A stretch of 64,000 nt of DNA, from the NCBI RefSeq assembly GCF_045037415.1, contig NZ_CP173438.1; one strand, 5' to 3'. The DNA is from Escherichia coli. GTDB lineage: Bacteria; Pseudomonadota; Gammaproteobacteria; Enterobacterales; Enterobacteriaceae. The notes beneath the pieces were generated by a model. It was given only the letters and a program-made list of their open reading frames with translations, did not search any database and was not told the DNA's origin. A program made the translations under genes and the position numbers. Positions 16,206-64,000 of the stretch are shown here, piece by piece. The stretch's first letter is position 1; every line of letters starts with the position of its first letter.

Positions 16206-16359
16206 AGATAGTCGAATGGTGGGGAAAAGTCACTCGAATTACGTATGAGATGCCGAATGCCACACTTTGCGTCTTATTCCTCCGACGTAGAGTTGTTTAC
16301 GCAGCAAACGCGGAGTATGTCATCAGGGTCAAGAATTGAAATTGAGAGATGCCTGAATA

Positions 16360-16392
16360 GCAAAAAAACGCCTTTAGGGCGCTTTTTTGCAT
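16360..16392 (-). terminator. terminator of the Lys/Val tRNA operon
   Basis: GC hairpin followed by a T-run on the minus strand immediately 3' of the last tRNA. Confidence 0.55.
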
Positions 16393-16468
16393 TGGTGGGT
16401 CGTGCAGGATTCGAACCTGCGACCAATTGATTAAAAGTCAACTGCTCTACCAACTGAGCTAACGACCC
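16393..16468 (-). tRNA. lysQ: tRNA-Lys(UUU)
   Basis: 76-nt exact match to recalled E. coli tRNA-Lys incl. CCA; symbol by position in operon. Confidence 0.93.
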
Positions 16469-16501
16469 CTTGCGGGATTATGCTGCTTTAATCATTCAGG
16501 A

Positions 16502-16577
16502 TGGTGGGTCGTGCAGGATTCGAACCTGCGACCAATTGATTAAAAGTCAACTGCTCTACCAACTGAGCTAACGACCC
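16502..16577 (-). tRNA. lysZ: tRNA-Lys(UUU)
   Basis: identical 76-nt tRNA-Lys copy. Confidence 0.93.
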
Positions 16578-16625
16578 ATACGGGTGTTACCTGAAAGATT
16601 TCTACTCGGAACCAATGTTTAAAAT

Positions 16626-16701
16626 TGGTGGGTCGTGCAGGATTCGAACCTGCGACCAATTGATTAAAAGTCAACTGCTCTACCAACTGAGCTAACGACC
16701 C
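16626..16701 (-). tRNA. lysY: tRNA-Lys(UUU)
   Basis: identical 76-nt tRNA-Lys copy. Confidence 0.93.
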
Positions 16702-16704
16702 GAG

Positions 16705-16780
16705 TGGTGGGTGATGACGGGATCGAACCGCCGACCCCCTCCTTGTAAGGGAGGTGCTCTCCCAGCTGAGCTAATCACCC
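16705..16780 (-). tRNA. valZ: tRNA-Val(UAC)
   Basis: 76-nt match to recalled E. coli tRNA-Val(UAC) incl. CCA; 3-nt spacer to next tRNA. Confidence 0.9.
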
Positions 16781-16831
16781 GATACTGCGCTGGATACTAC
16801 AAACTACTTCCACCGAACCCACCGTAATCAG

Positions 16832-16907
16832 TGGTGGGTCGTGCAGGATTCGAACCTGCGACCAATTGATTAAAAGTCAACTGCTCTACCAACTGAGCTA
16901 ACGACCC
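16832..16907 (-). tRNA. lysW: tRNA-Lys(UUU)
   Basis: identical 76-nt tRNA-Lys copy. Confidence 0.93.
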
Positions 16908-16909
16908 GG

Positions 16910-16985
16910 TGGTGGGTGATGACGGGATCGAACCGCCGACCCCCTCCTTGTAAGGGAGGTGCTCTCCCAGCTGAGCTAATCACCC
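16910..16985 (-). tRNA. valT: tRNA-Val(UAC)
   Basis: 76-nt tRNA-Val copy; 2-nt spacer to lysW. Confidence 0.9.
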
Positions 16986-17020
16986 GATACTACGCTGGAT
17001 ACTACAACTAACTATGTTAG

Positions 17021-17096
17021 TGGTGGGTCGTGCAGGATTCGAACCTGCGACCAATTGATTAAAAGTCAACTGCTCTACCAACTGAGCTAACGACCC
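17021..17096 (-). tRNA. lysT: tRNA-Lys(UUU)
   Basis: identical 76-nt tRNA-Lys copy; first gene of the operon. Confidence 0.93.
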
Positions 17097-17139
17097 ACTT
17101 TTTCGTTGCTTTCGGTTTGTTTGATATCCCGTGGCAACG

Positions 17140-20042: not shown

Positions 20043-21353
20043 TTACGGTTTGAAGTCCAATGGCGCGTTTTTGAACACTTCATATACTGCCTGGCTTGGT
20101 GGTTTCGGGATCTTCGCAAGTTTAGCTGCTGCCAACGCAGCTTGACAAAGTGCGGGATCGCCACCTTCAGGTTTGATATCCAGTAACATACCATCGGGTG
20201 CCAGTTTTATGCGCAGCGTACAGGTTTTGCCTGCATAGGACGATGCGTCATAGAACTTACTTTCGATAGCAGATTTAATCTGCCCGGCATAGTTATTGAT
20301 ATCGGCCCCTGATGCGCCATTGTTTTTAGTATTACCACTCCCGGCAGGCGAAGCATTGTTCCCTTTCGCCCCTCCCCCCGTTTTCGGTGCATTCTTACCA
20401 GAGCTTAGCTCACCGAAAATATCATCTGCCTCAGCGGCAGCTTTTGCTGCAGCGGCTTTTTCAGCTGCTGCTTTTGCCGCTGCCGCTTTTTTGTCTGCGG
20501 CGGCTTTTTCTGCCGCTGCTTTCTTATCAGCTGCTGCCTTTTCAGCAGCCGCTTTTTCTGCTGCTTTTTTGTCGGCTGCCGCTTTCTCTGCTGCCGCTTT
20601 CTTATCAGCTGCAGCCTTTTCAGCAGCCGCTTTTTCTGCTGCTTTTTTGTCGGCTGCCGCTTTCTCTGCTGCCGCTTTCTTCTCAGCTTCTGCCTTGGCT
20701 TTTTCAGCAGCTTCGGTTGCCGCTTTCTTTCTTGCTTCAGCTGCAGCTGCTTCTGCCGCTTCAGCTTTCTTCTTCAGCGCCGCAGCAGCAGCCTCGGCTT
20801 TTTTCTGCGCTTCGACTGCGGCTTTGGCGGCTTCTGCTTCTGCTTTTTTCTTCGCGTCTGCCGCCGCTTTCTTCGCTGCTTCTTCCGCAGCTTTAGCATC
20901 CGCTTCGGCCTTCGCTTTAGCATCTGCCGCCGCTTTCGCTGCCGCCTCTTCCGCTTGCTTCTGCTTTAACTCGGCCTGTTTTGCGGCTTCTTCAGCCTGC
21001 TTTTTCTGCTCCTGAGCCGCTAACCGCTCTTTCTCAAGTTGCTTCAGGCGTTCCTGTTCAGCCGCTTGTTTCTCACGCAGTTCTTCAGCAGCCTGCTGCT
21101 CTTTCATCTTGCGCTGCTCATCAGAACGCTTCGCGCTTGATTCCTGGCTTTGCATGCGTTTGTACTGCTCAACTACCGCACCTGAATCAACCATGACAGC
21201 GTCGATGGACGAACCACCGCCGCCTCCGGCTGAAGCTTCTATATTCTCATCGAACGAACTCCAGATCAGCGCCGCAAATAAGATGACATGCAGCACTGCT
21301 GAAATAATTATCGCCCGCTTGAGCTTGTCGTTTTGTTCGGTTGCCTTTGACAC
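20043..21353 (-). CDS. tolA: Tol-Pal system protein TolA
   Basis: 436 aa; N-terminal TM anchor, long Ala/Lys/Glu-rich domain II, C-terminal domain III. Confidence 0.95.
   Translation of the reverse strand: MSKATEQNDKLKRAIIISAVLHVILFAALIWSSFDENIEASAGGGGGSSIDAVMVDSGAVVEQYKRMQSQESSAKRSDEQRKMKEQQAAEELREKQAAEQERLKQLEKERLAAQEQKKQAEEAAKQAELKQKQAEEAAAKAAADAKAKAEADAKAAEEAAKKAAADAKKKAEAEAAKAAVEAQKKAEAAAAALKKKAEAAEAAAAEARKKAATEAAEKAKAEAEKKAAAEKAAADKKAAEKAAAEKAAADKKAAAEKAAADKKAAEKAAAEKAAADKKAAAEKAAADKKAAAAKAAAEKAAAAKAAAEADDIFGELSSGKNAPKTGGGAKGNNASPAGSGNTKNNGASGADINNYAGQIKSAIESKFYDASSYAGKTCTLRIKLAPDGMLLDIKPEGGDPALCQAALAAAKLAKIPKPPSQAVYEVFKNAPLDFKP
20521..20676. repeat. 78-bp tandem duplication (2 copies, 1 mismatch) inside tolA domain II
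   Basis: 20521-20598 and 20599-20676 are near-identical; in frame, each encodes a 26-aa Ala/Lys/Glu/Asp unit. Confidence 0.85.
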
Positions 21354-21417
21354 TCTCGGTTTCCAAAAACTGTTCGCCTGTTACCCGCTCTCTTTCAAGC
21401 AAGGGAAACGCAGATGT

Positions 21418-21846
21418 TTAGATAGGCTGCGTCATTAAACCAACCGATTTCACACCCGCACTATGTAACAAGTTCAGTGCTTTAATTATTTCATCGTAAG
21501 GCACATCTTTTGCGCCACCGATCAGAAAGACCGTTTTCGGGTTGGCCTTGAAACGGCTGGACACTTCCGCCACCACCTGCTCTGGTGGTAAACGCTCCAG
21601 GCGATCTTTCTCAACCACCACGGTGTACTGACCAATACCAGACACTTCAACAATCACTGGCGGATTATCGTTACTGCTCACCGCCTGTGATTCAGTAGCG
21701 TCTGGCAGATCGACCTCCACGCTCTGGGTGATGATGGGCGCTGTCGCCATAAAGATCAGCAACAGCACCAGCAGTACGTCCAGCAACGGTACAATGTTGA
21801 TTTCGGACTTGAGATCGCGACGACCTCGTCCACGCGCTCTGGCCAT
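21418..21846 (-). CDS. tolR: Tol-Pal system protein TolR
   Basis: 142 aa ExbD/TolR family. Confidence 0.97.
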   Translation of the reverse strand: MARARGRGRRDLKSEINIVPLLDVLLVLLLIFMATAPIITQSVEVDLPDATESQAVSSNDNPPVIVEVSGIGQYTVVVEKDRLERLPPEQVVAEVSSRFKANPKTVFLIGGAKDVPYDEIIKALNLLHSAGVKSVGLMTQPI

Positions 21847-21849
21847 GGC

Positions 21850-22943
<1,094 letters not shown>

Positions 22944-26588: not shown

Positions 26589-27744
26589 AATCAATCAGAT
26601 ATGTTAACCGCTCGTAAATCATGAATCATTGATGGGTTTGTTGTTAATAAATTGTAGCAAAATAACACAGTAAAACTACCCACATGGAAATATATAGATA
26701 AAAAACCAGTATTTTATTTAACAGAACCGCCTTATCGACTTTTTATAATACTAGTTAGTTAGAGTAGCTACTTTGTTGCCATTTTACATAACATATTTTT
26801 ATCAACGTTAATTGATTGTTGTCTTTATGAGCAACGTACTGTAAATCCGTCACTTATTGTTTCATTGGTAATAATCACAAGAAGAAATAGATACCTTAGG
26901 TATAGTCAGATGGAACAAGGATTTTCAAAATAAATTTATATGGTATTAATATTTCCCGATCTGTATTCAATGATTCGCTCAAAGATTGAAAATCAAGAGA
27001 AATTGTTATAGCAGTGATACGAGACAACAAAACGGAATGATTGCCAGCCGTTAGAAAACACCGGACACTCTCGTGTAAAAAGCTACCCTGTCTATGGATA
27101 TAGCGATATCGACTCATCAAGCGTGGACTGAATGATATTCAGCTCCATATGGGCGGCAACCTGGAGGATAAACATGATTTCGCCGTTGGAATCAAGGTTG
27201 TTCTGCAATATCTACCAGACTGCTTCAATTTATCTGTTTTGGAAGTGCAATAATCTTAATTTAACTATTTGAAGATGATGATATTGTCAGATGCCAGAAA
27301 TTTAGTAATCTGGAGAACCGTGTCTATGATCACTAAATATTAAAGTAATAGTCGTCAGTAACACATCGAGTGATATAACGTATTGACACCTAATCATATA
27401 AAAACAGATCGTAATTAAGCAGCATAAGAATATGTCTTATTATCATTAAAATACATTCTATTTCCATCATCCTTAAGATAATAAAACAGTGAGTGATGGA
27501 TAATTTCACCCCAAAAAAAAGCAAGCATATAAAATTAAAAAACATGACTCCACTTTCATTTTTATGAAATGGCATCGTGAAGAGGCGCCAGCCAATTATA
27601 AAGATCTTGCTCCTCAAAAAATGAAACAACTCAGCCTGAGATAATATTTTTGACCGAAGTTAACATTAAAAATGGTTAATAGTTTGCGCCTCTCACACAG
27701 GTCCAGGCAACTGCGTAACAGGCAAATCAAATTTTCGTAAACAG

Positions 27745-27770
27745 TGGGCATCATCAGATGCCCACAAAAT
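27745..27770 (-). terminator. hairpin downstream of the TPR-protein gene
   Basis: perfect 9-bp stem GTGGGCATC-tgat-GATGCCCAC just 3' of the stop; weak T tract. Confidence 0.45.
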
Positions 27771-27779
27771 ACAGCTGAT

Positions 27780-28973
27780 TTACATTTTCGTCTTTACACG
27801 TGCAATAGCTTCTTCATAAGAAGGCTTATTTTTTTCCGTATACGCCAGTTGATAATGCTGCAATGCTTCAGCATTCTGGCCCGAGGTTTCATAAATTTTG
27901 GCAATGTTATAATAGGAGTTGGCGCGCGTTGTCGCCGCATTTACCCCACTCGCTAACGAGATCGCTTTACGATTTGCCCAAATTGCTTCCGCTATGTTGC
28001 CATTTTTCTGATACGCCAGACCCAGGTTACTAAATGCCTGTCCGTAATTGCCGTCTAATTCTGTTGCCTGTTGGAAGAGTTGAATGGCTTGCTCAAGTTG
28101 ACCGGTTTTATAAACAGCTTCACCTTCGCGATTATATTTTCTTGCCAGTTGAGTATCTCCACTGTTTTGCATCGCAGGCGAAGCCGGAGCTGAAGAGTCC
28201 GTCGCAGGCATTATCACAGTGGCTAAATCCCTGACGTCTAATGTGGTGCCGTTAAAATTGGCGCTGGTAACAGAGTTGATATCTTCAAACTCGCCGTTTG
28301 GATTGAGTTTAAACACGGTCCAGATGTTCCCTCGTTTTCCTGCAGGGACACTATAACTACGTACCAGGGAGCTCCCTACATAAACAAACACTTTTGCCTT
28401 ACTGGCAGAGAGATAATTACTGTTGGGCAGCCCTTTATTGCTATAGTCCTGCACGGCATAGATGTAACTTTCACCAAAATGCTTTTTGCTGATAGTGACA
28501 GTTTCTGGTCCATAGCTATCCGTATCATCAACATCCAGATTGGCATCAGTTCCCTCTTTACTATCAAAATAGATATGTCCGCCAGGGAAGATCAAATGCG
28601 AATCAAGATCAAAAGGCTTTTCGCCCCAGCTCAAAACTACACGCATGCCATCCAGATTCGTCATCACCGGACTGATAGCATAAGTCATGCCAGCGCACGG
28701 ACATTTGACCACCAGATTGGAATACCCCTCTTTTTTGACGATTAATAGAGCATCTTTATTATCAGCAAATGAAGTCCCCAAACTAATGCTGCCCGAAGTA
28801 TTTGTGATACCAGAAACAGATTGTGCACCATTGCGTTGCAGCGTCACCGATGCCCCTTCAATGCGTTTATCTTTCACTGTCGCACTTAAAATATCAATGC
28901 TTACATCGGCGGCATAAGCACCTGCATTCATGCCCAACAGCGCGAGAGCAACTGGCAAAACAATTTTCTTCAT
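27780..28973 (-). CDS. secreted protein with C-terminal TPR repeats (accessory; not in K-12 as I recall)
   Basis: 397-aa ORF; Sec signal peptide MKKIVLPVALALLGMNAGAYA; C-terminal TPR-like repeats; AGGA RBS; visibly lower GC than flanking core genes. Confidence 0.75.
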   Translation of the reverse strand: MKKIVLPVALALLGMNAGAYAADVSIDILSATVKDKRIEGASVTLQRNGAQSVSGITNTSGSISLGTSFADNKDALLIVKKEGYSNLVVKCPCAGMTYAISPVMTNLDGMRVVLSWGEKPFDLDSHLIFPGGHIYFDSKEGTDANLDVDDTDSYGPETVTISKKHFGESYIYAVQDYSNKGLPNSNYLSASKAKVFVYVGSSLVRSYSVPAGKRGNIWTVFKLNPNGEFEDINSVTSANFNGTTLDVRDLATVIMPATDSSAPASPAMQNSGDTQLARKYNREGEAVYKTGQLEQAIQLFQQATELDGNYGQAFSNLGLAYQKNGNIAEAIWANRKAISLASGVNAATTRANSYYNIAKIYETSGQNAEALQHYQLAYTEKNKPSYEEAIARVKTKM

Positions 28974-29092
28974 GTATAAATCCTTTTTTTAATGAATGTA
29001 AGGTGGAAATTTCCCAGTTATTATTATCGTGTTAAAAGGTGAAAAAAAAGAAATAAGTACACTTTTCAGATTAACACCCACTCACCTTGAAA

Positions 29093-29116
29093 CAAAAAGG
29101 CCATCCGGAGATGACC
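29093..29116 (-). terminator. rho-independent terminator of the mngAB operon
   Basis: minus strand GGTCATC-tccg-GATGGCC followed by TTTTT, 55 nt after the mngB stop. Confidence 0.6.
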
Positions 29117-29170
29117 TGAACTTTCTGAGAAACGCTGTTTTTTCATGTGGTTTGCTTTATTACACACCAT

Positions 29171-40895: not shown

Positions 40896-41068
40896 CGTGA
40901 TCCCTTAAGCATCTTTTTTATGCTTACTTCGCCGTGGATACTACCACGCACATTTCATATCTGATGTGCGTGCCGGGGTTCACTTGTTGCGGACTTGTCG
41001 TGTTTTCTGCGTCCGCTAAGGAACCTTTAAAAACTGTCTTAGTGTCAGGGGCAGTTTTTAAAGATTTC

Positions 41069-41255
41069 CTGCATTTCTTTTGTAGGCCGGATAAGGCATT
41101 CACGCCGCATCCGGCGCTGTTTGCCTGATGCGACGCTTGCGCGTCTTATCAGGCCTACGGTTTCTGCATTTCTTTTGTAGGCCGGATAAGGCGTTCACGC
41201 CGCATCCGGCACTGGTTGCCTGATGCGACGCTTGTGCGTCTTATCAGGCCTACGG
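41069..41255. repeat. BIME: two tandem ~95-bp copies, each a REP pair
   Basis: 41069-41163 and 41164-41258 near-identical; each holds GCCGGATAAGGCGTTCACGCCGCATCCGGC and GCCTGATGCGACGCTTGCGCGTCTTATCAGGCCTACGG. Confidence 0.85.
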
Positions 41256-41256
41256 T

Positions 41257-41973
41257 TTACGCATTACGTTGCAACAACATCGACTTGATATGGCCGATGG
41301 CGCGCGTCGGGTTCAGCCCCTTCGGACATACACTGACGCAGTTCATGATGCTGTGACAGCGGAATACACTGAATGCATCGCTCAAACCGTCGAGGCGGCT
41401 GTCAGTCTCGGTATCACGGCTATCGATCAGGAAACGATATGCCGCTAACAAGCCTGCCGGACCGATAAACTTATCGGGATTCCACCAGAAAGACGGACAA
41501 GAGGTTGAACAACATGCGCAGAGAATACATTCATACAACCCGTCGAGTTTTTCGCGCTGCTCTGGCATCTGTAAATGCTCGCGAGCTGGCGGATTTTGTC
41601 CATTATTCAACAGGTAAGGCTTAATTTTCTCATATTGCGCATAGAATTGTCCCATGTCTACCACCAAATCGCGGATCACCGGTAAACCTGGCAGCGGACG
41701 AATCACAATCTTCTTGCCCGGCTGGTTGAGTGCCGAAATCGGGGTAATACAGGCCAGACCATTCTTACCGTTCATGTTCAGACCGTCGGAACCGCACACA
41801 CCTTCACGGCAGGAGCGGCGGAACGACAGGCTGGGATCTTTCTCTTTCAGCTGAATAAGCGCATCCAGCAGCATCATGTCGCGACCTTCTTCCGCTTCCA
41901 GGGTGTAATCCTGCATACGCGGAGCATCATCAACATCCGGGTTATAGCGATAAATTGAAAACTCGAGTCTCAT
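41257..41973 (-). CDS. sdhB: succinate dehydrogenase iron-sulfur subunit
   Basis: 238 aa with Cys clusters for 2Fe-2S, 4Fe-4S and 3Fe-4S centres. Confidence 0.98.
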   Translation of the reverse strand: MRLEFSIYRYNPDVDDAPRMQDYTLEAEEGRDMMLLDALIQLKEKDPSLSFRRSCREGVCGSDGLNMNGKNGLACITPISALNQPGKKIVIRPLPGLPVIRDLVVDMGQFYAQYEKIKPYLLNNGQNPPAREHLQMPEQREKLDGLYECILCACCSTSCPSFWWNPDKFIGPAGLLAAYRFLIDSRDTETDSRLDGLSDAFSVFRCHSIMNCVSVCPKGLNPTRAIGHIKSMLLQRNA

Positions 41974-46477: not shown

Positions 46478-46494
46478 AAATGACACCGACAAAA

Positions 46495-46519
46495 CCCTGC
46501 GTGGACACGCAGGGTTTTT
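46495..46519. terminator. shared hairpin terminator between convergent gltA and TRAP permease gene
   Basis: CCCTGCGT-ggac-ACGCAGGG followed by TTTTT on the plus strand and a shorter T-run on the minus strand. Confidence 0.7.
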
Positions 46520-46523
46520 AATT

Positions 46524-47834
46524 CTACACCAGCAGCAAAGATATTGCCGGAATATAGGTAATGACCAACAGAAGTAAAATAAGACTGATCAGTAATGGCA
46601 CCGCTTCACGCATAAATTGCCCGACAGAAACCTGTACGGTATTACATACCAGCAGCATCACCGTTCCGACAGGTGGTGATAACGTTCCTAACGATAAGTT
46701 GAGGATCATAATGATGCCAAAATGCACCGGATCAATGCCAAAATGAGCCACCACGGGTTTAAGTAATGGGACTAATATCAGCAGAATGGCACTACCTTCA
46801 AGGAACATGCCAAGCACCAGCAGCAATAGATTGATAATCAATAAAAAGACGTATTTATTATCGGTCAGAGAAGTTACAAACTCCGCAACCGTGATACCTG
46901 CCCGCTCAAGGGAAAATATCCAGCCCAGCGCGGCACTCGCCATAATGATTAACATGACCGATGCCGTGGAACGCGCCGTCTCAGAGAGTGCTGTAAATAC
47001 ATGGCTGATTTTCAGTTCGCGATAAATTACAAAACCAATAAACATTACCAATAATACTGCTACCGCTCCGGCTTCCGTTGGCGTAAAGATATTTGCCCGA
47101 ATACCACCGATAACCGCAACAATTAAGAACAGTGCTGGCCAGGCCTGCACCAGCGCCACTGACACTTCTTTCGGTTTTGGCCAGTGTTCGCTGGAAGGTT
47201 TTAAACCGCGACGAATAGCCACCAACCATACGGTAACGATCAACATGGCGGAGCACAGCAGACCTGGCAGGATCCCGGCCATAAACATGGAGCCGATGGA
47301 GACATCCGCCACCAGTCCGTAAAGGATCAGTGCAATACCCGGTGGAATAATTGGTGTAATCAGCGAACCACTTGCCGTTATCGCCGCCGCAAAGCCACGG
47401 GAATAACCTTTCTGTTCCATTTCCGGCACCATCATGCGCGATAACATTGCGGCATCCGCCAGATTTGAGGCACTGACACCGCCCATCATGGTACTGACCA
47501 GAATATTAGCCCCACCCAGGCCACCGCGCATTCTGCCAATCAACACGTTGGCAATTTGCAAAATACGCGCGGCAATACCGGTATAGCTCATTAACGTGCC
47601 TAATAAGATAAAAAACGGAATAGCTAACAGCGAAGGGGTTTGCGTCGTGGCAATCAAACGCTGAATTGCCACCATTAACGGCACATTTGAATAGCAAAGG
47701 AAGTAGGTCAGAATGCCGCAAAACATCGCCAGCCATACCGGCATATTGATAAATAAACAGACGAACATAAGCGGAATGATCATCAGCCAGTTATCCAGCC
47801 AGCTTCCCGCCAGTAATTCACTCAATGCTGTCAT
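46524..47834 (-). CDS. TRAP transporter large permease subunit (DctM family)
   Basis: 436-aa polytopic membrane protein; 1-nt overlap with upstream DctQ-like gene. Confidence 0.85.
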   Translation of the reverse strand: MTALSELLAGSWLDNWLMIIPLMFVCLFINMPVWLAMFCGILTYFLCYSNVPLMVAIQRLIATTQTPSLLAIPFFILLGTLMSYTGIAARILQIANVLIGRMRGGLGGANILVSTMMGGVSASNLADAAMLSRMMVPEMEQKGYSRGFAAAITASGSLITPIIPPGIALILYGLVADVSIGSMFMAGILPGLLCSAMLIVTVWLVAIRRGLKPSSEHWPKPKEVSVALVQAWPALFLIVAVIGGIRANIFTPTEAGAVAVLLVMFIGFVIYRELKISHVFTALSETARSTASVMLIIMASAALGWIFSLERAGITVAEFVTSLTDNKYVFLLIINLLLLVLGMFLEGSAILLILVPLLKPVVAHFGIDPVHFGIIMILNLSLGTLSPPVGTVMLLVCNTVQVSVGQFMREAVPLLISLILLLLVITYIPAISLLLV

Positions 47835-48295
47835 TATTCACCTTCTTTGCGTGGCGTTTTCTTGATCAGTTGTAAGGCAGTAAAACAGGCGACACCGATA
47901 GCGCCAACCGTGACGGCAATATCGATCCAAAACCAGGATATTTTTAATATTTGCGTGGTTTTAAAGGCTGTCCCGGCAGCTAATTTCCATGCTGACCAGG
48001 CCATGACCACCAGCAAAATAATAGACATCAGAGAGACTAAAAACGCTAATATACGTTGCCCGCGTGAAGTAAGTGCATCGGCTAAAAATGGAATCGATAA
48101 ATGGGTATTATCTCGTTCAGCAACAACCGCACCAAACATGACTACCCAAATCATTAATAAACCGGAAACCTCTTCTGTCCACTGTAATGGCATATGAAAA
48201 CAGTAACGCATTATTACCGCAGCAATGGTCATGATTACCAATATAAAGAGCGTTAATACCGCAGCAACTTCAATCATTTTCCCTAAAAGACGCAT
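47834..48295 (-). CDS. TRAP transporter small permease subunit (DctQ family)
   Basis: about 153 aa with 4 predicted TM helices; start set at MRLLGKM (GAGG RBS) rather than ORF-track start at 48331. Confidence 0.75.
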   Translation of the reverse strand: MRLLGKMIEVAAVLTLFILVIMTIAAVIMRYCFHMPLQWTEEVSGLLMIWVVMFGAVVAERDNTHLSIPFLADALTSRGQRILAFLVSLMSIILLVVMAWSAWKLAAGTAFKTTQILKISWFWIDIAVTVGAIGVACFTALQLIKKTPRKEGE

Positions 48296-48354
48296 AAACA
48301 CCTCTGCTCTTAACGGTCGGTGCCGAAACACCGACCAGTCCTTATGCCATGAAG

Positions 48355-49323
48355 TTATTTCAGCTGTTGCTGAATAGTGTCATACAAACCAGGGGTCCAT
48401 TCCGGGAATTGTTGATAGACTTTTAAGGCTTTTTCTTTGAAAGGGGCGACGTCAGGATAGATGATTTCCACGCCCTGCTCCTGCATGGTTTTCAACATTG
48501 TCGCATCCTGCTCAGTGGTAATTTTCTGGCTATATAAACCAGCTTCATACGCTGTCTGGTGAATAATATCTAACTGCGCAGGTGTCAGGGTACTGAAAAA
48601 CGCTTCGCCACCCAACCATAATGATGTATTGGTCAGATAGTTCACCATTGACAGATATTTCGCCTGCTCATGCAGCTTTTGCCCATAGAGAACAGAAACC
48701 GGGTTTTCCACACCATCGATCATCCCCTGAGTCAGCGCCGGATAAACATCTCCCAGCGGCATTGGTGTTGGGGTTGCGCCCATCGCTTCGATAGCTTTAA
48801 TCTGCATGACGTTATTCGGCACGCGGATCTTCATCCCTTTCAAGTCTTCAGGTGTACGAATCGGTTTTTTAGCAATGATCTGCCTGGTACCGTACAGATA
48901 GTTGCTCATGACAATATGCACACCTTTTTCCCGTAGTTTCTGTTCTTTTTGTTTAAACCAGTCACTGGCATAAATCGCAAACAGTTTCTGCGGATCTTCG
49001 GTTAAATAAGGCCCAAACAATATTCCCAAGTCTGCATCGTAGTCAGTTAAAAATCCTACATCACTGATGGTGATAATATTCATCCCCATCAACGCTTGTT
49101 CAGTAATATCTTGTTTAGAACCTAACTGTGAACTTGGGTAAAGTTCGAAAACAATATCTCCATTGCTTTTTTTCTTCACAAGTTCTGCCCAGTGCTTCAC
49201 TACTGTATCCGCTGGCTCGCCGGGGTTACTTTCATAGGCGATTTTGATAGTTACCGGTGCGGCATTCAGCATCGGACTAAATAAAGCTAAAAGAAATAAA
49301 AGTGGTGTCAGTAATTTTTTCAT
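48355..49323 (-). CDS. TRAP transporter periplasmic solute-binding protein (DctP family)
   Basis: 322 aa; signal peptide MKKLLTPLLFLLALFSPMLNA; DctP-like length and organisation. Confidence 0.85.
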   Translation of the reverse strand: MKKLLTPLLFLLALFSPMLNAAPVTIKIAYESNPGEPADTVVKHWAELVKKKSNGDIVFELYPSSQLGSKQDITEQALMGMNIITISDVGFLTDYDADLGILFGPYLTEDPQKLFAIYASDWFKQKEQKLREKGVHIVMSNYLYGTRQIIAKKPIRTPEDLKGMKIRVPNNVMQIKAIEAMGATPTPMPLGDVYPALTQGMIDGVENPVSVLYGQKLHEQAKYLSMVNYLTNTSLWLGGEAFFSTLTPAQLDIIHQTAYEAGLYSQKITTEQDATMLKTMQEQGVEIIYPDVAPFKEKALKVYQQFPEWTPGLYDTIQQQLK

Positions 49324-49350
49324 TATTATTACCTGTAAGAGCTTTATCGA

Positions 49351-50547
49351 TTAACGGGGATCTGCCCGACAGACTGCACTTTTGCTGTAATCAAATGCTT
49401 TATACGTTAAAACAAACTCCTGATGTTCCAGTCGTTCTGCGGCACAATATTGACCGTTGGCGACATGTTCAATCACCTGCATAATATCGTCTGCAATATC
49501 GTCGAGCGTTGCGCCTTCGCTAATTACACGACCGGCATTAACGTCCATATCGTCAGATAAATGCTCCCACGTCTGCGGGTTATTACACACTTTAATAATA
49601 GGAGCGATCACTGAACCAATAACTGAACCGCGACCTGTGGTAAATAACACCATATGACAGCCAGAGGCGATAAGTTCCAGTGCTTCTGAGGAATCGTTAA
49701 TATTCGGATACCCAAAACGAGGTTCACCATCAGGCACCACGTCCATCAACCAAAGCCCAGGAAAGGGCGTTTGTTGCGTCGGCAAAATAACGCCAGCAAT
49801 CAGCGCATCGCCCGACTTGGTATAAGCCCCAAGGGATTTTTCTTCCTGAGTGGTTAAGCCGCCTTCAGCATTACCGTTAGAAAAACTCCCCAGCCCCATC
49901 AAACTGTAATAACGTTCGGCTTTTGTCATTGCCACTTCGATGGCATCACGTGCCTGCGAACTAGCCGCGCGCGACATCATATGCTGCTCACAACCAAGCA
50001 ACTCACCGCTTTCTTCAAAAATACAGGTAGCCCCTTTCTCCAGCAGTTGGTCAAAGGCACGTCCTACTGCCGGGTTACCCGTGATACCACTGGTGCCATC
50101 GGAGCCACCGCAGATAGTACCAACCACCAGGTCGCTCCAGTTCAGGATACAACGCGGTGTATCCGCAAGCTGTTCCAGCATTTCAGCGACCAACTGCTTA
50201 CCCAGAGTAATGGTGTTGGTCGTGCCTTTATTTTCCTGAATGACCAGCGTATGGCACGGTCGCCCACTTTCTCGTACTTCTTGCTCCAGCCGACGGCGAT
50301 CGAAATTCTCGCACCCCAGCGAAATAATCAGTACACCACCTACGTTGCTATGAGTCGCCAGATTTTTCACCAGCCGATAGCCATAATCGCTGGGATAACA
50401 ACCTGAAAAACCAAAATACTGCACGTCGTGACAAGGAAATCCTTCGGCAATCTTTTTAGCGACATGGCTGGCACACTCCACCATAAAGATTACCTGCACA
50501 GTATTACGAATACCTGGTCGACCATTTTGCCGTACATAACCTTCCAT
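49351..50547 (-). CDS. UxaA/GarD-family sugar-acid dehydratase, large catalytic subunit
   Basis: 398 aa resembling the C-terminal catalytic domain of altronate/galactarate dehydratases; start overlaps stop of upstream SAF gene. Confidence 0.75.
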   Translation of the reverse strand: MEGYVRQNGRPGIRNTVQVIFMVECASHVAKKIAEGFPCHDVQYFGFSGCYPSDYGYRLVKNLATHSNVGGVLIISLGCENFDRRRLEQEVRESGRPCHTLVIQENKGTTNTITLGKQLVAEMLEQLADTPRCILNWSDLVVGTICGGSDGTSGITGNPAVGRAFDQLLEKGATCIFEESGELLGCEQHMMSRAASSQARDAIEVAMTKAERYYSLMGLGSFSNGNAEGGLTTQEEKSLGAYTKSGDALIAGVILPTQQTPFPGLWLMDVVPDGEPRFGYPNINDSSEALELIASGCHMVLFTTGRGSVIGSVIAPIIKVCNNPQTWEHLSDDMDVNAGRVISEGATLDDIADDIMQVIEHVANGQYCAAERLEHQEFVLTYKAFDYSKSAVCRADPR

Positions 50548-50858
50548 TATGCTTTTTCCTCTGACTGATAGCCGGCATCATCATGATGAAAAATGGCGAT
50601 GGCATTGCTGGCAAGATTATGGGAATGCACATGTTCACCCATGGCAATATCGCGAGTGGCGTGTCCGATAATGGCGCCGTATTTCAGAATCGAATCACCA
50701 TTGTTCAGCGCTTCGCAGGCCAGTTTGTGCCCCAGGGTAACGGAACTACAGGCCACCATTTCCCCCTCATCCCACCAGACAATATCGCCACTGGCGATGT
50801 CATTCAGCGCGACTACACAGTTATCTTTGGCATGTAGCTTTAACGCACGTTTGCGCAT
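50547..50858 (-). CDS. UxaA-family dehydratase small subunit (SAF domain)
   Basis: about 103 aa from MRKRALKLHAKDNCVVAL with perfect GGAGG RBS; ORF-track start at 50963 judged an over-extension. Confidence 0.7.
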   Translation of the reverse strand: MRKRALKLHAKDNCVVALNDIASGDIVWWDEGEMVACSSVTLGHKLACEALNNGDSILKYGAIIGHATRDIAMGEHVHSHNLASNAIAIFHHDDAGYQSEEKA

Positions 50859-50872
50859 AATTCCTCCGTACA

Positions 50873-51628
50873 TCAGAAGCCGATCAATGCGCCGCCATCC
50901 ACCACCAGCACCTGACCACTGACAAACGCCGCTGCGTCTGAAGCCAGATAAACCGCAGCCCAACCGATATCCTCCGGCTTGCCGAATTTTTTCATCGGGG
51001 TACGACCCAGGATTTTGTTACGGCGTTCGTCATCACCTTCAATGGCCTTACGCAACATTGGTGTATCGATCCAGCCTGGCGCAATACCATTGACGCGAAT
51101 CCCATGAACGGCAAGCTCCGTGGTCATACCGCGAATCATGCCGAGATAGGCTGACTTCGCTGCGCTGTAGCCAGTAACCAGAGGCTGCCCAAGAAATGAG
51201 GTCATCGATGCAGTAAAAAGCACACAGCCTTTACCGCGTTGTTTCATATGCGGCACCAGCGCTTTGGTTAACGCAAATGCGCCGACTACGTGAACGTCGA
51301 GTACTGACTCAAAATCACTGACGCTCATCTCTTCAATCGGTTTTTTGCAGTGATTGCCTGCGTTATTGACCAGGATATCGATAGCCCCGTGTTCGCTAAT
51401 AAGCACATCAACTTTTTCCTGCGCGGCTGCGGTATCCCCGACATCCATTTGTATCCAACTGGCCTGCGACCCCAATGTTCCGGCGGTCGCTTGCGCCAGC
51501 TCGCCGTTCAGGTCAGCAATAATGACCTTCGCCCCGCTGACTATCATGCATTTCGCCATTGCCAGCCCCAGCCCACTGGCTGCACCGGTGATCAACGCGG
51601 TTTTGTTATGTAAAGAAAAAGCATTCAT
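50873..51628 (-). CDS. short-chain dehydrogenase/reductase, KduD/IdnO-like
   Basis: 251 aa; TGAASGLG cofactor motif and YSAAK catalytic motif. Confidence 0.85.
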   Translation of the reverse strand: MNAFSLHNKTALITGAASGLGLAMAKCMIVSGAKVIIADLNGELAQATAGTLGSQASWIQMDVGDTAAAQEKVDVLISEHGAIDILVNNAGNHCKKPIEEMSVSDFESVLDVHVVGAFALTKALVPHMKQRGKGCVLFTASMTSFLGQPLVTGYSAAKSAYLGMIRGMTTELAVHGIRVNGIAPGWIDTPMLRKAIEGDDERRNKILGRTPMKKFGKPEDIGWAAVYLASDAAAFVSGQVLVVDGGALIGF

Positions 51629-51639
51629 GGTGTCGCTCC

Positions 51640-52653
51640 TTAAAGGTCAATGAGGATTTTGGTATACGCGCCGGGATCACTTGCCCAGTCGCTAAAAGCG
51701 TGATCAGCCTGTTCCAGCGGGTAGTGAGCACTCACCAGATTGCTGACCGGATAACGCCCGGACTCCATCAATGCCAGCACGGCACGAAAATCCGCCACGG
51801 TGGCATTGCGCGAACCACGGATATCCAGTTCTTTCATCAGGAACTGCGCACTCTGATAACTCACTGGCTGTTTGGCGTAACCGACATAAACCACACGACC
51901 GCTAAACGCCACCAACCCTGTAGCCTGTTCAATGGTTTGTTGATTACCCACCGCTTCAATCACCACTTCCGGGCCGCGACCGTCATTTAACAGCACCAGT
52001 TCTGCCGCCACGTCACATTGCTGCGAATTAAGAAAACGTTGCGCACCGCATTCCAGGGCAATGTTCCGCTTGCGATCATCAATATCGATAGCAATTACGC
52101 GCGCCCCCATGGCGGATGCCGCGGCGATAGCGCCAAGGCCAATTACCCCACAACCGATAACTGCGACCCATTCACCCACATTAATTTGCGCACGTCTGGC
52201 CGCATGTAGTCCCACGGCCAGCGGTTCTACCAGCGCTAACTCATCAACACTTAAGGCATTACAGACAATGACTTTATGTGCAGGCATCGTCAGTTGTTGC
52301 GCCATCCCCCCCTGACGTTGCACACCAAGAGTTTGGTTGTTTTTACAGGCGTTAGGACGACCGCTCAGACAGGAGCTGCACACGCCACACTCAGTGCAAG
52401 GCAGAACGACCACCCGGTCACCTGGCTTGATCGCCCCTGCCATATCGCCAGTTGCCAGCACCGTGCCGCCAATTTCATGCCCCGGAATACAGGGATAATT
52501 AACCAGCGGATTTAGTCCCCGCCAGGTATTGAGGTCAGAACCACACAGTCCGACACGCTCAACATTGATTAGCACTTCTCCTTTACCGCAGACAGGTTCG
52601 GGGATATCAACAAATCGCGCCTGACTTCCCTGCTCAATGGTTAATGCCTTCAT
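51640..52653 (-). CDS. Zn-dependent medium-chain polyol/sugar-acid dehydrogenase
   Basis: 337 aa; GHE catalytic-Zn motif, structural-Zn Cys cluster, GxGxxG Rossmann motif. Confidence 0.85.
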   Translation of the reverse strand: MKALTIEQGSQARFVDIPEPVCGKGEVLINVERVGLCGSDLNTWRGLNPLVNYPCIPGHEIGGTVLATGDMAGAIKPGDRVVVLPCTECGVCSSCLSGRPNACKNNQTLGVQRQGGMAQQLTMPAHKVIVCNALSVDELALVEPLAVGLHAARRAQINVGEWVAVIGCGVIGLGAIAAASAMGARVIAIDIDDRKRNIALECGAQRFLNSQQCDVAAELVLLNDGRGPEVVIEAVGNQQTIEQATGLVAFSGRVVYVGYAKQPVSYQSAQFLMKELDIRGSRNATVADFRAVLALMESGRYPVSNLVSAHYPLEQADHAFSDWASDPGAYTKILIDL

Positions 52654-52665
52654 TCATTGCTCTCC

Positions 52666-53352
52666 TTACATTACGCCGAAGGTTTCAAAGGCCTGTACCG
52701 TGCTCATGCCATCACTGATGGCTTTGCGCACTTCACTTTCAGTTGCCACTTTTTCCAGGGCCTGGGTAATAACTTCTTTCTCAACAACCTGGGGAATAAT
52801 CAGTAATCCGTCACGATCACCAAACACGATATCGCCCGGATTCACTCGCACGCCGTGAAATTCAATAGGTACGCCGAAGTCGATGACCTTGCCGCGCGGA
52901 CCTTGATCCTGTGCGTAAGTGCCATGACAAAAAGTGGGAAATTTCAATTCAAGAATTTCAGCAGAGTCACGGGCGTAACCATCGAGTACCGCACCTGCTG
53001 CTTTCAGATGCATGGCACGGGTAGACATCAACCCGCCCCACAAGGCATAGCGCAGAGAGCTGCCCGTAGTGATGTAAACATCGTTCTCTTTGAGGGCATC
53101 CAGCGCTTCAAACATGATGCCAAACGGTTTTTCGCCAATCGCCGTCTTACCCGACGTCGATTTGGTTTCGTAAACGTCCGACTCCAGCACCGGCATTGCC
53201 CGGCCTGCCACCACCGTATTCACATCCAGCGGCTTGATTGCCGGAGAAACAAACTGGTGCATATAGCCCAGCGTGTCGAGAATATCGCCAACCACGGCGG
53301 TAAATAGCCGGGTTTTCATCAAAGCAAAAAGTTCGTTATCACTCTTCCACAT
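52666..53352 (-). CDS. RraA-family protein, putative class II 4-hydroxy-2-oxoacid aldolase
   Basis: about 228 aa from MWKSDNEL (ATG with AGGA RBS); RraA-like fold inferred by recall; first gene of the operon. Confidence 0.6.
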   Translation of the reverse strand: MWKSDNELFALMKTRLFTAVVGDILDTLGYMHQFVSPAIKPLDVNTVVAGRAMPVLESDVYETKSTSGKTAIGEKPFGIMFEALDALKENDVYITTGSSLRYALWGGLMSTRAMHLKAAGAVLDGYARDSAEILELKFPTFCHGTYAQDQGPRGKVIDFGVPIEFHGVRVNPGDIVFGDRDGLLIIPQVVEKEVITQALEKVATESEVRKAISDGMSTVQAFETFGVM

Positions 53353-53361
53353 TATTTTCGT

Positions 53362-53390
53362 CCTGTAAGCCTGTTTAACAGGTTTACAGG
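53362..53390. promoter_or_regulatory. nested inverted-repeat candidate operator
   Basis: CCTGTAAGCCTGTTTAACAGGTTTACAGG: two CCTGT arms then two ACAGG arms; inner tGTttaACa fits GntR-type GT-Nx-AC; 10-38 bp upstream of the first operon gene. Confidence 0.5.
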
Positions 53391-53615
53391 GTAAGGAGAA
53401 AAAGCGCACAATACTGCGAAGGGCGTCACGAAAAAGTTGTGTATTTACTATTTCTTCGCCACTCTTTCACACAATATGTCTTTGATTCGCACTGCATGGC
53501 GGGCGCACAGGCGCAGTAGTCTATTGATAATCAAGGGTTCTGGAGGAAAATATGAAGGATACAGTCCCGGTATTCTGGATTTCACCGACCAGGAAAAAGT
53601 ACAACAGGAGTAAAA

Positions 53616-54329
53616 ATGAGTGAGAGTGCGTTATTGACCAGCGTAACGTTATCGTCACAGGTCAAAAATCATATTCTTAATCTGATCGCCGAACAAAAAT
53701 TGACACCGGGGATGCCAGTTCCCAGTGAAGTTCAGCTGATTCAGAAATTGGGTGTCAGTCGGGGTATTGTGCGTGAGGCCTATCGTTCACTTGCCGCCCT
53801 GGGGATTCTGGAAACGCACAGCGGTAAAGTGCCACGAATCAAAAAATTTGATGATGAAGTGCTGCGCGTGGTGTTTGGATTTGCCCTGGCGACCGAACAA
53901 GTGACAACAGAGCAAATTCTTCAAGTACGCCGCTGGCTGGAGTTGGGCGTTGTGGAAGCTGCTGCCCGTAATGGCGAAGAGGAAGATTTTGCTAACCTAC
54001 GGGCTGAAATGGCAAAAATCCGCGAACAGTTCAATGATGTTGAAAGCTTTATCACCCATGATATCCGCTTCCATCAGTTACTTGCCGTTGCCTCAAAAAA
54101 TCCGCTTTTTATGATGTTATTGCAGGCATTACATCAGCAGTTGCGGCAATCCATCCAGGAGGGTTTAAACGCCCAAAGCGATCAGAAAGAGTATGGCAAT
54201 CACATCATCACACTACACCAGAAAATCTGCGATGCTGTGTGTGCCAGGGATGTCGAAACGGCGACTCAAGCCATGAAATCACACTTCGACAGCCCGGTCA
54301 GTGCACTGATCAATAATTCCTCGTCATAA
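53616..54329 (+). CDS. GntR-family (FadR/FCD subfamily) transcriptional regulator
   Basis: 237 aa; N-terminal HTH (KLGVSRGIVREAYRSL), C-terminal all-helical FCD-like domain; divergent from the catabolic operon. Confidence 0.85.
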   Translation: MSESALLTSVTLSSQVKNHILNLIAEQKLTPGMPVPSEVQLIQKLGVSRGIVREAYRSLAALGILETHSGKVPRIKKFDDEVLRVVFGFALATEQVTTEQILQVRRWLELGVVEAAARNGEEEDFANLRAEMAKIREQFNDVESFITHDIRFHQLLAVASKNPLFMMLLQALHQQLRQSIQEGLNAQSDQKEYGNHIITLHQKICDAVCARDVETATQAMKSHFDSPVSALINNSSS

Positions 54330-54508
54330 GACTTATCTCAGTTCAATCGTTTACTCTTCCCTCTTTTACAAACGAGAGGGAGACAACGGTACTTAATACG
54401 CCCTTTAGCCAAAATCTGTCTTTTTCTTGATTACCGCTATTTTTTCGTTGAGGCGCATTCTTTATGCTGTATCGATACACCAAAGGTAAGTTAAACAGGG
54501 AGTGACGG

Positions 54509-61217: not shown

Positions 61218-61250
61218 GCCTGATAAAACGCTCGCTGCGTTTTATCAGGC
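61218..61250. repeat. REP-like perfect palindrome between convergent dtpD and phr
   Basis: 14-bp arms GCCTGATAAAACGC / GCGTTTTATCAGGC with 5-nt loop; overlaps the last codons of phr. Confidence 0.7.
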
Positions 61251-62663
61251 TCCTTTCCTCGCTTCTTCGTACGCTGCCAGCGTTCGCAGCCTTGCCTCTT
61301 TGTGATCGACTATCGGTTGCGGATAATCCAACGTCACACCTGTTTTCTCTGCCCACTTCCACGGCTCATGCACCGCTTTCCCCGGTACATCGCGCAGCTC
61401 CGGTAGCCACTGGCGGATAAATTCGCCTTCGCGGTCAAATTTCTCGCCCTGAGTTGTCGGGTTGAAAATACGAAAATACGGCGCTGCATCAGTACCCGTA
61501 GAAGCGGCCCACTGCCAGCCACCGTTATTAGCTGCCAAATCACCATCAATCAGCTGCGACATGAAATATCGCTCGCCTTCGCGCCAGTCGATCAACAAAT
61601 CTTTCACCAGAAAACTGGCTGTAATCATCCGTAGCCGGTTATGCATCCAGCCAGTGCTGTTAAGCTGACGCATGGCAGCATCGACAATCGGGTATCCCGT
61701 TTTGCCTTCCTGCCAGGCCTTTAAATGGGCGGGATTACTTTGCCACTGTACACGATCCGTCCAGGCAATAAACGGACGATGTTTACACAGCGAAGGATAA
61801 TACGTCATCAAATGGCGGTAGAACTCGCGCCAGATCAGCTCACTAAGCCAGACACTACCGGCTCCACCGTCCAGCGCCTGCGGCTGTTCCGCCAACAAGC
61901 GATGCAAACACTGGCGAGGCGATAACCCGCCCGTTGCCAGGCTGGCGGACAAACGACTGGTGCCTTCTACTGCCGGAAAATCTCGTTGTTGCTCATACTC
62001 TCCGGCACCGTTCTGGCAAAACTGGCGTAATTGCGCAATCGCCGCTTTTTCTTCCACCGGGAAATGCGCAGTATCGAAAGACTGACGAGGATAATTCAGC
62101 GTAATGGATGGCGCGGGATCTATCGCTCCACTACTACGTACTTTTGGCGCAGCGACGCACTCCGGCATCCCTTCCCGCAGCCGTTTCAGCCAGGCATTCT
62201 TAAAAGGCGTAAAGACTTTGTACATCTCATGATTGCCAGTCATCACCGCCCCCGGCGGCAGGATCACGCTGTCATCAAATCCTTCACACACCACGTTACG
62301 CAGCGCTCTTTCAACTTCCACATCCCGCGCCCGCTCATTTACCTCATACTGATAGTTATAAAAAAGATGAGTAACGCGGTTTTCCGCGCACACCTGTTTA
62401 ACTATTTCGACGCTGGCGGCAAAGTCATCCACTTCACGGAACAATAAAGGAATACCTTTTTCCGCCAGCGCGTTTTGCAGCGCATTAAGTTGTGTATTGA
62501 TAAGTTCAGCCTGACGCGGCGACACATTATGCGCCGCCCACTGGCGTGGGGTAGCGATATACAACGCCAGCACGCGTGCAGACGAATTGCGGCAGGCGGC
62601 AGCCAGTGCGAGATTATCGTGCAGACGTAAATCCTGGCGAAACCAGACCAGATGGGTAGTCAT
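61245..62663 (-). CDS. phr: deoxyribodipyrimidine photolyase
   Basis: 472 aa starting MTTHLVWFRQDLRLHDNLALAAAC. Confidence 0.97.
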   Translation of the reverse strand: MTTHLVWFRQDLRLHDNLALAAACRNSSARVLALYIATPRQWAAHNVSPRQAELINTQLNALQNALAEKGIPLLFREVDDFAASVEIVKQVCAENRVTHLFYNYQYEVNERARDVEVERALRNVVCEGFDDSVILPPGAVMTGNHEMYKVFTPFKNAWLKRLREGMPECVAAPKVRSSGAIDPAPSITLNYPRQSFDTAHFPVEEKAAIAQLRQFCQNGAGEYEQQRDFPAVEGTSRLSASLATGGLSPRQCLHRLLAEQPQALDGGAGSVWLSELIWREFYRHLMTYYPSLCKHRPFIAWTDRVQWQSNPAHLKAWQEGKTGYPIVDAAMRQLNSTGWMHNRLRMITASFLVKDLLIDWREGERYFMSQLIDGDLAANNGGWQWAASTGTDAAPYFRIFNPTTQGEKFDREGEFIRQWLPELRDVPGKAVHEPWKWAEKTGVTLDYPQPIVDHKEARLRTLAAYEEARKGA

Positions 62664-63169
62664 AAAACTCCTGCATGGCGCAAGTTAATCACACGCGGCC
62701 AAAGTTCGAAATAACGCTGCCCTGAAAGCCAGGCGTCAGGATAAAGCGCCATATAGTGTTTGATACGCATCAGCGGCGCAAGAAGCGATTGCTCGCCACG
62801 GCGATAACTGTCGATAAGCGCCGCCAGCTGCTGGCGTTCTGTGGAATCAATATGTGGGCGAAAATATCCCTGAACGTGCATCAAAACGTTAGTATGATCA
62901 CGCCGGTTGGCAGGGTGAGAAAGCAAAACAATCACGCGTTGGCGGTACTGGTTGTAATAGTCATCCAGACTTTGCCACCGGTGAATATCAGCCACAAACG
63001 GGCCAAGTTTGCGGTACTCCGGCTGAGAATGCGCCAGAAAGACGAGTTTATAGCGGCTGTGATAATCGAGAAGCGCCCCGCGCGTTAGTCCTCGATCTTT
63101 GAGATTGTGTAACTCATGCAAAGCAAAAATGCGGATAAGGGTGCTGTCATCAAAAAGTTGTTGATTCAT
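62660..63169 (-). CDS. ybgA: DUF1722-family protein
   Basis: 169 aa; stop-start overlap with phr. Confidence 0.93.
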   Translation of the reverse strand: MNQQLFDDSTLIRIFALHELHNLKDRGLTRGALLDYHSRYKLVFLAHSQPEYRKLGPFVADIHRWQSLDDYYNQYRQRVIVLLSHPANRRDHTNVLMHVQGYFRPHIDSTERQQLAALIDSYRRGEQSLLAPLMRIKHYMALYPDAWLSGQRYFELWPRVINLRHAGVL

Positions 63170-63210
63170 TACTGCTCCTGAACGGTTTACAGGAGTAAGT
63201 GTAGACGCCG

Positions 63211-63246
63211 AAAAAAGAAAACCGCCAGCGTTTCCACCGGCGGTTT
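63211..63246 (-). terminator. rho-independent terminator of ybfA
   Basis: AAACCGCC-N12-GGCGGTTT followed by a T-run on the minus strand, between ybfA and ybgA. Confidence 0.65.
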
Positions 63247-63269
63247 TCTTTAAACGTCATGTTTGGCAA

Positions 63270-63476
63270 TCAGTAAAAATCACCGGTTGCCTTTTCGGCC
63301 TGATCCATCCACACCGGTTTATCGCTGGTTTTCGACCAGACGCGGTGCAGGTAGCTATAAAAGCGGGCGCGGTCTTTCCAGAAAAGCATGAAAGGCAGCG
63401 CCAGAACGCCCGCTGCAACCGCACAAGTACGGCGTAAAAAGATAAGCCATGCAGGATATTCTTTGTAGAGTTCCAT
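63270..63476 (-). CDS. ybfA: DUF2517-family small membrane protein
   Basis: 68 aa [16 protein letters not shown]...; adjacent to kdp promoter as in K-12. Confidence 0.9.
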
Positions 63477-63689
63477 ACTTTTCTCCCCCTTTTGTATCTA
63501 CCCGGTGAATAGCACCGGAAAAATGAATTCGTTTATCTGATGAAAATAGTACCGCTGTTTGTGTAATTTTACTACTCATCCGACCACTTATTTTTGCTTA
63601 TTGATGGTTTATTTATATTCACCGTGTAATTAAGTTACATAAAAGTTAAATTAATACTAAACATTAGTTAAATCATTGCTTTTGCCATT

Positions 63690-63706
63690 TTTATACTTTT
63701 TTTACA
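63690..63706 (+). promoter_or_regulatory. KdpE binding site in the kdpFABC promoter
   Basis: TTTATACTTTTTTTACA (TTTATA-N5-TTTACA direct repeat) about 85 bp upstream of kdpF. Confidence 0.65.
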
Positions 63707-63788
63707 CCACGCCCGCAGATTTTTGCGAAATCTTTGCAGCCAGAACTCTACCCTTCCGGTATCACTTTTAGGCCACTGGAGGTGCACT

Positions 63789-63878
63789 GTGAGTGCAGGC
63801 GTGATAACCGGCGTGTTGCTGGTGTTTTTATTACTGGGTTATCTGGTTTATGCCCTGATCAATGCGGAGGCATTCTGA
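63789..63878 (+). CDS. kdpF: K+-transporting ATPase subunit F
   Basis: 29-aa ORF from [32 protein letters not shown], translated by hand; stop overlaps kdpA start. Confidence 0.85.
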
Positions 63879-64000
63879 TGGCTGCGCAAGGGTTCTTACT
63901 GATTGCCACGTTTTTACTGGTATTAATGGTGCTGGCGCGTCCCTTAGGTAGCGGGCTGGCGCGGCTGATTAATGATATTCCTCTTCCTGGTACGACGGGC
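63878..64000 (+). CDS. kdpA: K+-transporting ATPase subunit A, N-terminal part (continues past window)
   Basis: ATG at 63878; [41 protein letters not shown]. Confidence 0.9.

Follow-up and report, generated by a model that had tools for sequence, protein, structure and literature searches.

In Escherichia coli K-12 MG1655, an intergenic distance of 9,660 bp separates the genes ybfA and ybgA, and rhsC, ybfB, ybfO, ybfC, ybfQ, ybfL and ybfD are annotated between them. In the 64,000-nt stretch of E. coli DNA analysed here (contig NZ_CP173438.1 of assembly GCF_045037415.1; hereafter the window), the same two genes are separated by exactly 100 bp (63170-63269). The question raised by this locus is whether such a short interval was never entered by the RhsC element, was vacated by it, or was reacquired in its empty form from another lineage. 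A preliminary description of the window had placed RhsC between ybfA and ybgA in K-12, had put the two genes about 100 bp apart and had called the interval an unoccupied Rhs site, and all three statements agree with the results presented below. The interval is very probably an intact, never-interrupted empty allele of the RhsC site (kdpA...phr), in a window that comes from a B2-type lineage.

The site corresponds to "locus 5" (kdpA…phr) of a previous survey, in which kdpA was given as the left boundary (Table 3 in Jackson et al. 2009, BMC Genomics 10:584, PMC2935791). In the window, orthologues of kdpA and ybfA lie on one side of the spacer and those of ybgA and phr on the other. Based on the list of open reading frames and on the K-12 and CFT073 annotations, the left flank of the Rhs site is ybfA (DUF2517/YbfA family; 63270-63476, minus strand) and the right flank is ybgA (DUF1722/YbgA family; 62660-63169, minus strand). 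The latter is followed by phr (phrB), the gene of deoxyribodipyrimidine photolyase (61245-62663, minus strand), for which tblastn was also used, and phr and ybgA look like an operon because they overlap by 4 nt. Beyond ybfA, kdpF (63789-63878, plus strand) and the start of kdpA (63878 onward, plus strand, cut by the window end at 64000) were located by K-12 annotation and tblastn. At the other end of phr, about 108 bp of the K-12 phr-dtpD interval (NC_000913 740919-741026) are absent at 61250-61252, and the missing segment is possibly an intergenic element of the REP type.

Compared with the K-12 RhsC element (b0700-b0706), the window has the same chromosomal site and the same flanking genes and lacks the whole island, i.e., rhsC, the immunity and tip genes, and the H-repeats; it is therefore the empty allele and the exact target of the K-12 island. 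No homology to rhs, H-repeat or tip sequences was detected by tblastn anywhere in the 64-kb window with RhsC, YbfB, YbfC and YbfD as queries. The K-12 insert, delimited by local alignment and inspection, extends from about 729403 to 738962 of NC_000913 (9,560 bp). The left match between K-12 and the window ends, and the right match starts, within window positions 63207-63218, and in thousands of occupied genomes the match of a 140-nt probe runs up to window position 63207 exactly and no further. The point of insertion was accordingly placed by alignment at 63207/63208, just past the ybfA terminator, with an ambiguity of at most about 10 nt toward 63218. In the alignments of this junction to K-12 and to other E. 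coli genomes, homology breaks exactly at the ends of the island. At the left junction, K-12 keeps the terminator and a short T-rich spacer, reading …GGCGGTTTTTTGTATCAGG up to the junction and AAGATGTTCAG… after it, and at the right junction …CATTTCTCAA is followed by CGTCTACAC, where the chromosomal sequence resumes. Neither a target-site duplication nor terminal inverted repeats were found flanking the island (left end AAGATGTTCAG, right end ...CATTTCTCAA).

In the direction of transcription, the spacer consists of 22 nt after the ybfA stop codon, a terminator hairpin, UUUUCUUUUUU, three bases, CGTCTACACTTA, a small hairpin and the ybgA ATG. The predicted intrinsic terminator of ybfA (63211-63251, minus strand) has a 17-bp stem and a GAAA loop (63214-63251), and its 3' arm runs into UUUUCUUUUUU, with the U-tract reaching 63211. 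The folding energy calculated for the 106-nt spacer RNA is -44.1 kcal/mol (z = -5.8), a stability attained by none of 200 shuffled sequences. The hairpin is kept across four genera, with a consensus stem of 15 pairs in 11 sequences and compensatory changes in two of the pairs. By its G+C-rich hairpin, its U-tract and its conservation, the structure is a rho-independent terminator, termination itself being predicted, and the "clean ybfA terminator" of the preliminary description is in agreement with this. A simple promoter and terminator scan did not call the hairpin, probably because base pairing between the A-tract and the U-tract extends the stem. An Rfam scan of 62900-64000 gave only sub-threshold chance matches, which fell on the same hairpin.

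Directly right of the insertion point lies the motif CGTCTACACTTA (63196-63207, minus strand). Escherichia and Citrobacter share this motif, and Enterobacter and Trabulsiella have slightly altered forms of it. A -10-like promoter element is one possible role, the beginning of the leader another; in a consensus promoter scan, nothing resembling a sigma-70 promoter was called in the spacer from the ybfA terminator to ybgA. Folding also gave a small leader hairpin, CUCCUG...CAGGAG (63175-63195, minus strand), over the Shine-Dalgarno sequence of ybgA (AGGAG), and in Citrobacter a hairpin of different sequence occupies the same position. This hairpin was considered as a conserved regulatory structure and rejected, because the individual sequences fold only weakly (z from -0.6 to -3.4) and the hairpin is absent from the consensus fold. 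The empty spacer would carry only what its flanking genes need, i.e., the ybfA terminator, the CGTCTACACTTA motif, and the leader of ybgA together with the ribosome-binding site. A Rhs polymorphic-toxin island of 6.6-9.6 kb, composed of an rhs core gene, immunity and orphan-tip genes and an ISAs1/H-repeat, is inserted in K-12-type E. coli between the terminator U-tract and the CGTCTACACTTA motif, and it is because this island is absent from the window that ybfA and ybgA are only 100 bp apart. Occupied alleles retain the ybfA terminator on the ybfA side of the island. Since the island sits between this terminator and the ybgA-phr leader, occupied strains differ from empty ones in the sequence upstream of the photolyase operon.

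The adjacency of ybfA and ybgA could have been the universal state of the species, as the preliminary description itself had considered, but it was found in only 1,297-1,310 of about 5,425 genomes. In 5,424 complete E. coli genomes compared with a 1-kb probe, the empty junction was unbroken in 1,310 and split in all others; with the 140-nt probe, which is unable to bridge an inserted IS, it was contiguous in 1,297 of 5,426, and 1,075 of all matching genomes had at least 99% identity to this probe. NZ_AP018784.2 (strain SK1144) matches the 1-kb probe at 100% identity. The island is carried at exactly this spot by K-12 and about three quarters of E. coli. The RhsC core was without any megablast match in 1,523 of the 5,426 genomes, a count compatible with the empty-site genomes lacking the whole Rhs family, the two sets having been counted separately.

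CFT073, one of the Rhs-free B2 strains, has ybfA and ybgA separated by a 100-bp spacer that is identical to that of the window at every base, and over the 27 kb shared with CFT073 the window has 98.6-99.3% identity to that strain, compared with 93-97.4% to K-12. Judged by this spacer identity and by the overall level of similarity, the window is therefore assigned to a B2-type lineage of E. coli. The spacer of strain Nissle is also identical, and clean empty sites with other spacer alleles are present in IAI39, CE-O153H30, CUVET19-970 and JNE12-007. These results are consistent with previous work, in which B2 genomes were reported without any Rhs core genes, no rhs genes were tabulated for 536, APEC O1, CFT073 and E2348/69, and one group of pathogenic strains was without the clade-I rhs expansion (Jackson et al. 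2009, PMC2935791).

The window and CFT073 represent different B2 sublineages: the window has an 8-kb TRAP/sugar-acid island that CFT073 lacks. This island (46480-54410) lies between abrB and gltA, in place of the ybgO-ybgP-ybgQ-ybgD fimbrial operon of K-12, and the abrB-gltA interval of CFT073 contains a fimbrial pseudogene only. It encodes a TRAP transporter (DctP/Q/M), a split UxaA-type sugar-acid dehydratase, an SDR, a Zn-dependent dehydrogenase, an RraA-like aldolase and a GntR/FCD regulator, and its presence in 660 of 5,426 complete genomes makes it a sublineage marker. Several other differences were observed along the window. Between mngB and cydA (26600-29160), there are about 2 kb of extra DNA relative to K-12, in which an open reading frame (27780-28973, minus strand) encodes a tetratricopeptide-repeat protein of 397 amino acids that was found near full length in 1,104 of 5,426 genomes. 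The tRNA-Lys/tRNA-Val array at 16357-17100 (lysT-valT-lysW-valZ-lysY-lysZ-lysQ in K-12) aligns to K-12 off-register, which suggests that the number or order of the repeat units differs from K-12. Overlapping off-register blast matches were also obtained in the sdhB-sucA intergenic region (41066-41265), where tandem units of about 95-105 bp appear to differ in copy number from both CFT073 and K-12.

An empty site can be either a site that was never entered or one from which the element was lost, and the comparison with other genera bears directly on this distinction. The gene order kdpA(-)-ybfA-ybgA-phr was recovered in six Citrobacter species, Enterobacter sp. JUb54 and Trabulsiella, plus E69 and SCPM-O-B-8794, two divergent genomes labelled E. 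coli, by a peptide-pattern scan that covered one genome per species and did not recover Salmonella, E. fergusonii or K-12-type E. coli. In all of these outgroups and in E69 and SCPM-O-B-8794, the ybfA stop codon and the ybgA ATG lie 100-107 nt apart, and all these spacers have the same order of parts as the window, i.e., terminator, CTACACTTA motif (in the form (C/T)TACACTTA), leader and ATG. The shared adjacency and order indicate that the empty arrangement is the deep ancestral one. No scar and no remnant of the island termini (AAGAYGTTCAG... or ...CACAAATATCATTTCTCAA) was found in the window spacer. Because it lacks a scar and is collinear at base level with the spacers of Citrobacter, Enterobacter and Trabulsiella, the allele is better explained as never occupied than as the product of a deletion, and we infer that the lineage of the window's allele never carried the island. 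The view in the preliminary description that the site would help in reconstructing the ancestral locus stands at the level of the Enterobacteriaceae; within Escherichia it needs qualification, because the occupied state there is also old and of single origin.

Rhs repertoires are often gained and lost (Jackson et al. 2009, PMC2935791), and the island could in principle have been removed in situ from an ancestor of this lineage by a precise excision or deletion that restored the original spacer exactly. This is very improbable. The island is without target-site duplication or terminal inverted repeats, so that no mechanism for a base-perfect excision is evident, and the spacer agrees with the outgroups in both architecture and length. 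The single deletion allele that was observed is visibly scarred. In DETEC-S586 (L002, 3452-4329), IS1 stands in place of the island, about 57 nt of foreign (non-K-12) sequence follow the ybfA terminator, and ybgA has lost its 5' end, since homology to K-12 begins again 24 nt into the gene. This allele also brings ybfA and ybgA close together without an rhs gene; it is a genuine secondary loss, unlike the window, which has no IS1, none of the foreign 57 nt and no other scar.

A technical origin of the gap, by which a repeat-rich Rhs island would have collapsed out of the assembly, deserves mention since draft contigs do break at the island: in E. albertii, E. sp. MOD1-EC7003 and E. sp. E1V33, the contig terminates immediately upstream of ybgA. 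Such an artefact is scarcely conceivable here, as more than 1,000 independent complete genomes, CFT073 and Nissle among them, have the identical 140-nt junction, and a collapse would not regenerate a spacer like that of the outgroups.

If the window carries the never-occupied allele, the history of the occupied alleles has to be considered as well. The content of the site varies among occupied strains. The island is 9.05 kb long in strain 08-00022 and 6.6 kb long in 1424KP, where the rhs gene and the tips are different ones; both versions have the K-12 left end AAGAYGTTCAG and an ISAs1/H-repeat at the end. In Escherichia whittamii (L010, 1-8944, upstream of ybgA), the site contains a T6SS effector island with a DUF4123 adaptor, a C-terminal fragment of VgrG, an N-acetylmuramidase and an intact ISAs1 transposase. 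This island shares with the RhsC island the right junction (… followed by CGTCTACAC) and the ISAs1/H-repeat at the right end, and differs in having DUF4123/VgrG/muramidase cargo and no rhs core, whereas the window has no cargo at all.

The foreign DNA ends at the same base before CGTCTACAC in K-12, E. albertii, E. whittamii, E. sp. MOD1-EC7003 and E. sp. E1V33. A possible reason for this could be that the shared junction is merely the terminal repeat of the ISAs1/H-repeat. This explanation was rejected, since no terminal inverted repeat was found and, in comparison with the independent H-repeats yhhI and ydcC, the IS homology extends only to …CTTGCCCTG, which leaves about 37 nt up to the junction. 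These last 37 nt or so, CTACAACAGGATTAACTTCACAAATATCATTTCTCAA, are specific to the locus and common to K-12, MOD1-EC7003 and E1V33; E. whittamii has CTACAACAGGATTAACTTCACAAATATCATTTCTCAA after an extra segment of about 65 nt, and E. albertii shares the last 22 nt or so. The shared right junction and the locus-specific terminal 22-37 nt therefore point to one original insertion, followed by turnover of the cargo to the left of it, and this insertion may be older than the species E. coli.

This leaves two accounts of how the B2-type strains came to have an allele that was never interrupted, as it could have been either kept vertically or regained by homologous recombination. Under the second account, the E. 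coli ancestor was occupied and the B2/F-type lineages imported the empty allele by recombination across the kdp/ybfA and ybgA/phr flanks, so that the allele is virgin and the history of the lineage is nevertheless one of loss. The insertion of single origin common to E. albertii, E. whittamii and two other Escherichia species agrees with such a replacement (PMC2935791). E. albertii has a complete rhs at locus 5, and ancestral E. coli was inferred to be occupied (Jackson et al. 2009, PMC2935791); if this inference is correct, the B2 lineage once had the island and later lost it, and its present allele would even so descend from an empty one. Recombination does occur at the site: the 22 nt beside ybfA form two main haplotype families, one with three sub-variants, and these haplotypes have been shuffled between the two states, CUVET19-970 and JNE12-007 being empty with the K-12-type haplotype and 1424KP occupied with the IAI39-type. 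The identity between CFT073 and K-12 also falls to 91-95% across ybfA-ybgA-phr, compared with 96-98% nearby.

On the other hand, similar divergence peaks are present elsewhere, one of them in the speF upstream region some 9 kb to the left and others at +8 kb and +14 kb, and no donor lineage was found. Furthermore, in a neighbour-joining analysis of ybgA and phr, the empty alleles of E. coli formed one clade within E. coli, apart from the occupied alleles, with E69 and SCPM-O-B-8794 outside. This clade fits vertical inheritance in early-branching (basal) phylogroups, and an old replacement would be compatible with it too. Replacement is a serious candidate to which we give a little less than an even chance. 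The divergence around the site was also considered as a unique peak marking an ancient balanced polymorphism, an idea that was not retained, being suggestive only, because comparable peaks occur in the speF upstream region, at abrB and elsewhere. The strongest peak of the region lies 8-10 kb to the left of the Rhs site, outside the window, where about 2 kb of CFT073 (L026, about 20100-22100; speF upstream, on the kdpE side) are only 82-88% identical to K-12, with a TonB-receptor fragment in CFT073 as against speFL in K-12.

Under the account of vertical retention, the RhsC site would be a presence/absence polymorphism of single origin that is older than E. coli: the island would have entered once, at one position, in early Escherichia, and the virgin allele would have persisted alongside it in several Escherichia species, accompanied by turnover of the cargo (Rhs in E. 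coli, VgrG/DUF4123/muramidase in E. whittamii) and by recombination, with the empty allele of B2/F strains representing an unbroken ancestral lineage. This full scenario is offered tentatively, and we consider it more doubtful than not. The never-interrupted state of the window's own allele, on which both accounts agree, is the much firmer part.

The polymorphism of the locus and the rhs-free state of B2 strains are already published, and in this respect the finding is ordinary and known. An ECOR-based survey by Hill et al. in 1995 is said to bear on the Rhs-free strains of phylogroup B2 as well. The only mildly new element is the base-level evidence for one insertion event common to the occupied Escherichia alleles and for an empty allele persisting. 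In practice, the junction is a clean marker of single-PCR size that distinguishes B2/F-type E. coli (about 24% of complete genomes) from the lineages with the RhsC island. Its value is modest: the usefulness for strain typing proposed in the preliminary description holds insofar as lineages are separated, while the resolution is only about that of the phylogroup (B2, IAI39-like and a few others) and the polymorphism was known before. The empty junction also supplies the exact target sequence of the RhsC island. The current understanding of Rhs biology is unchanged by the finding; the reading of the B2/F allele as an unbroken lineage, if true, would call for a revision of the published view that locus 5 was occupied by rhs in ancestral E. 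coli.
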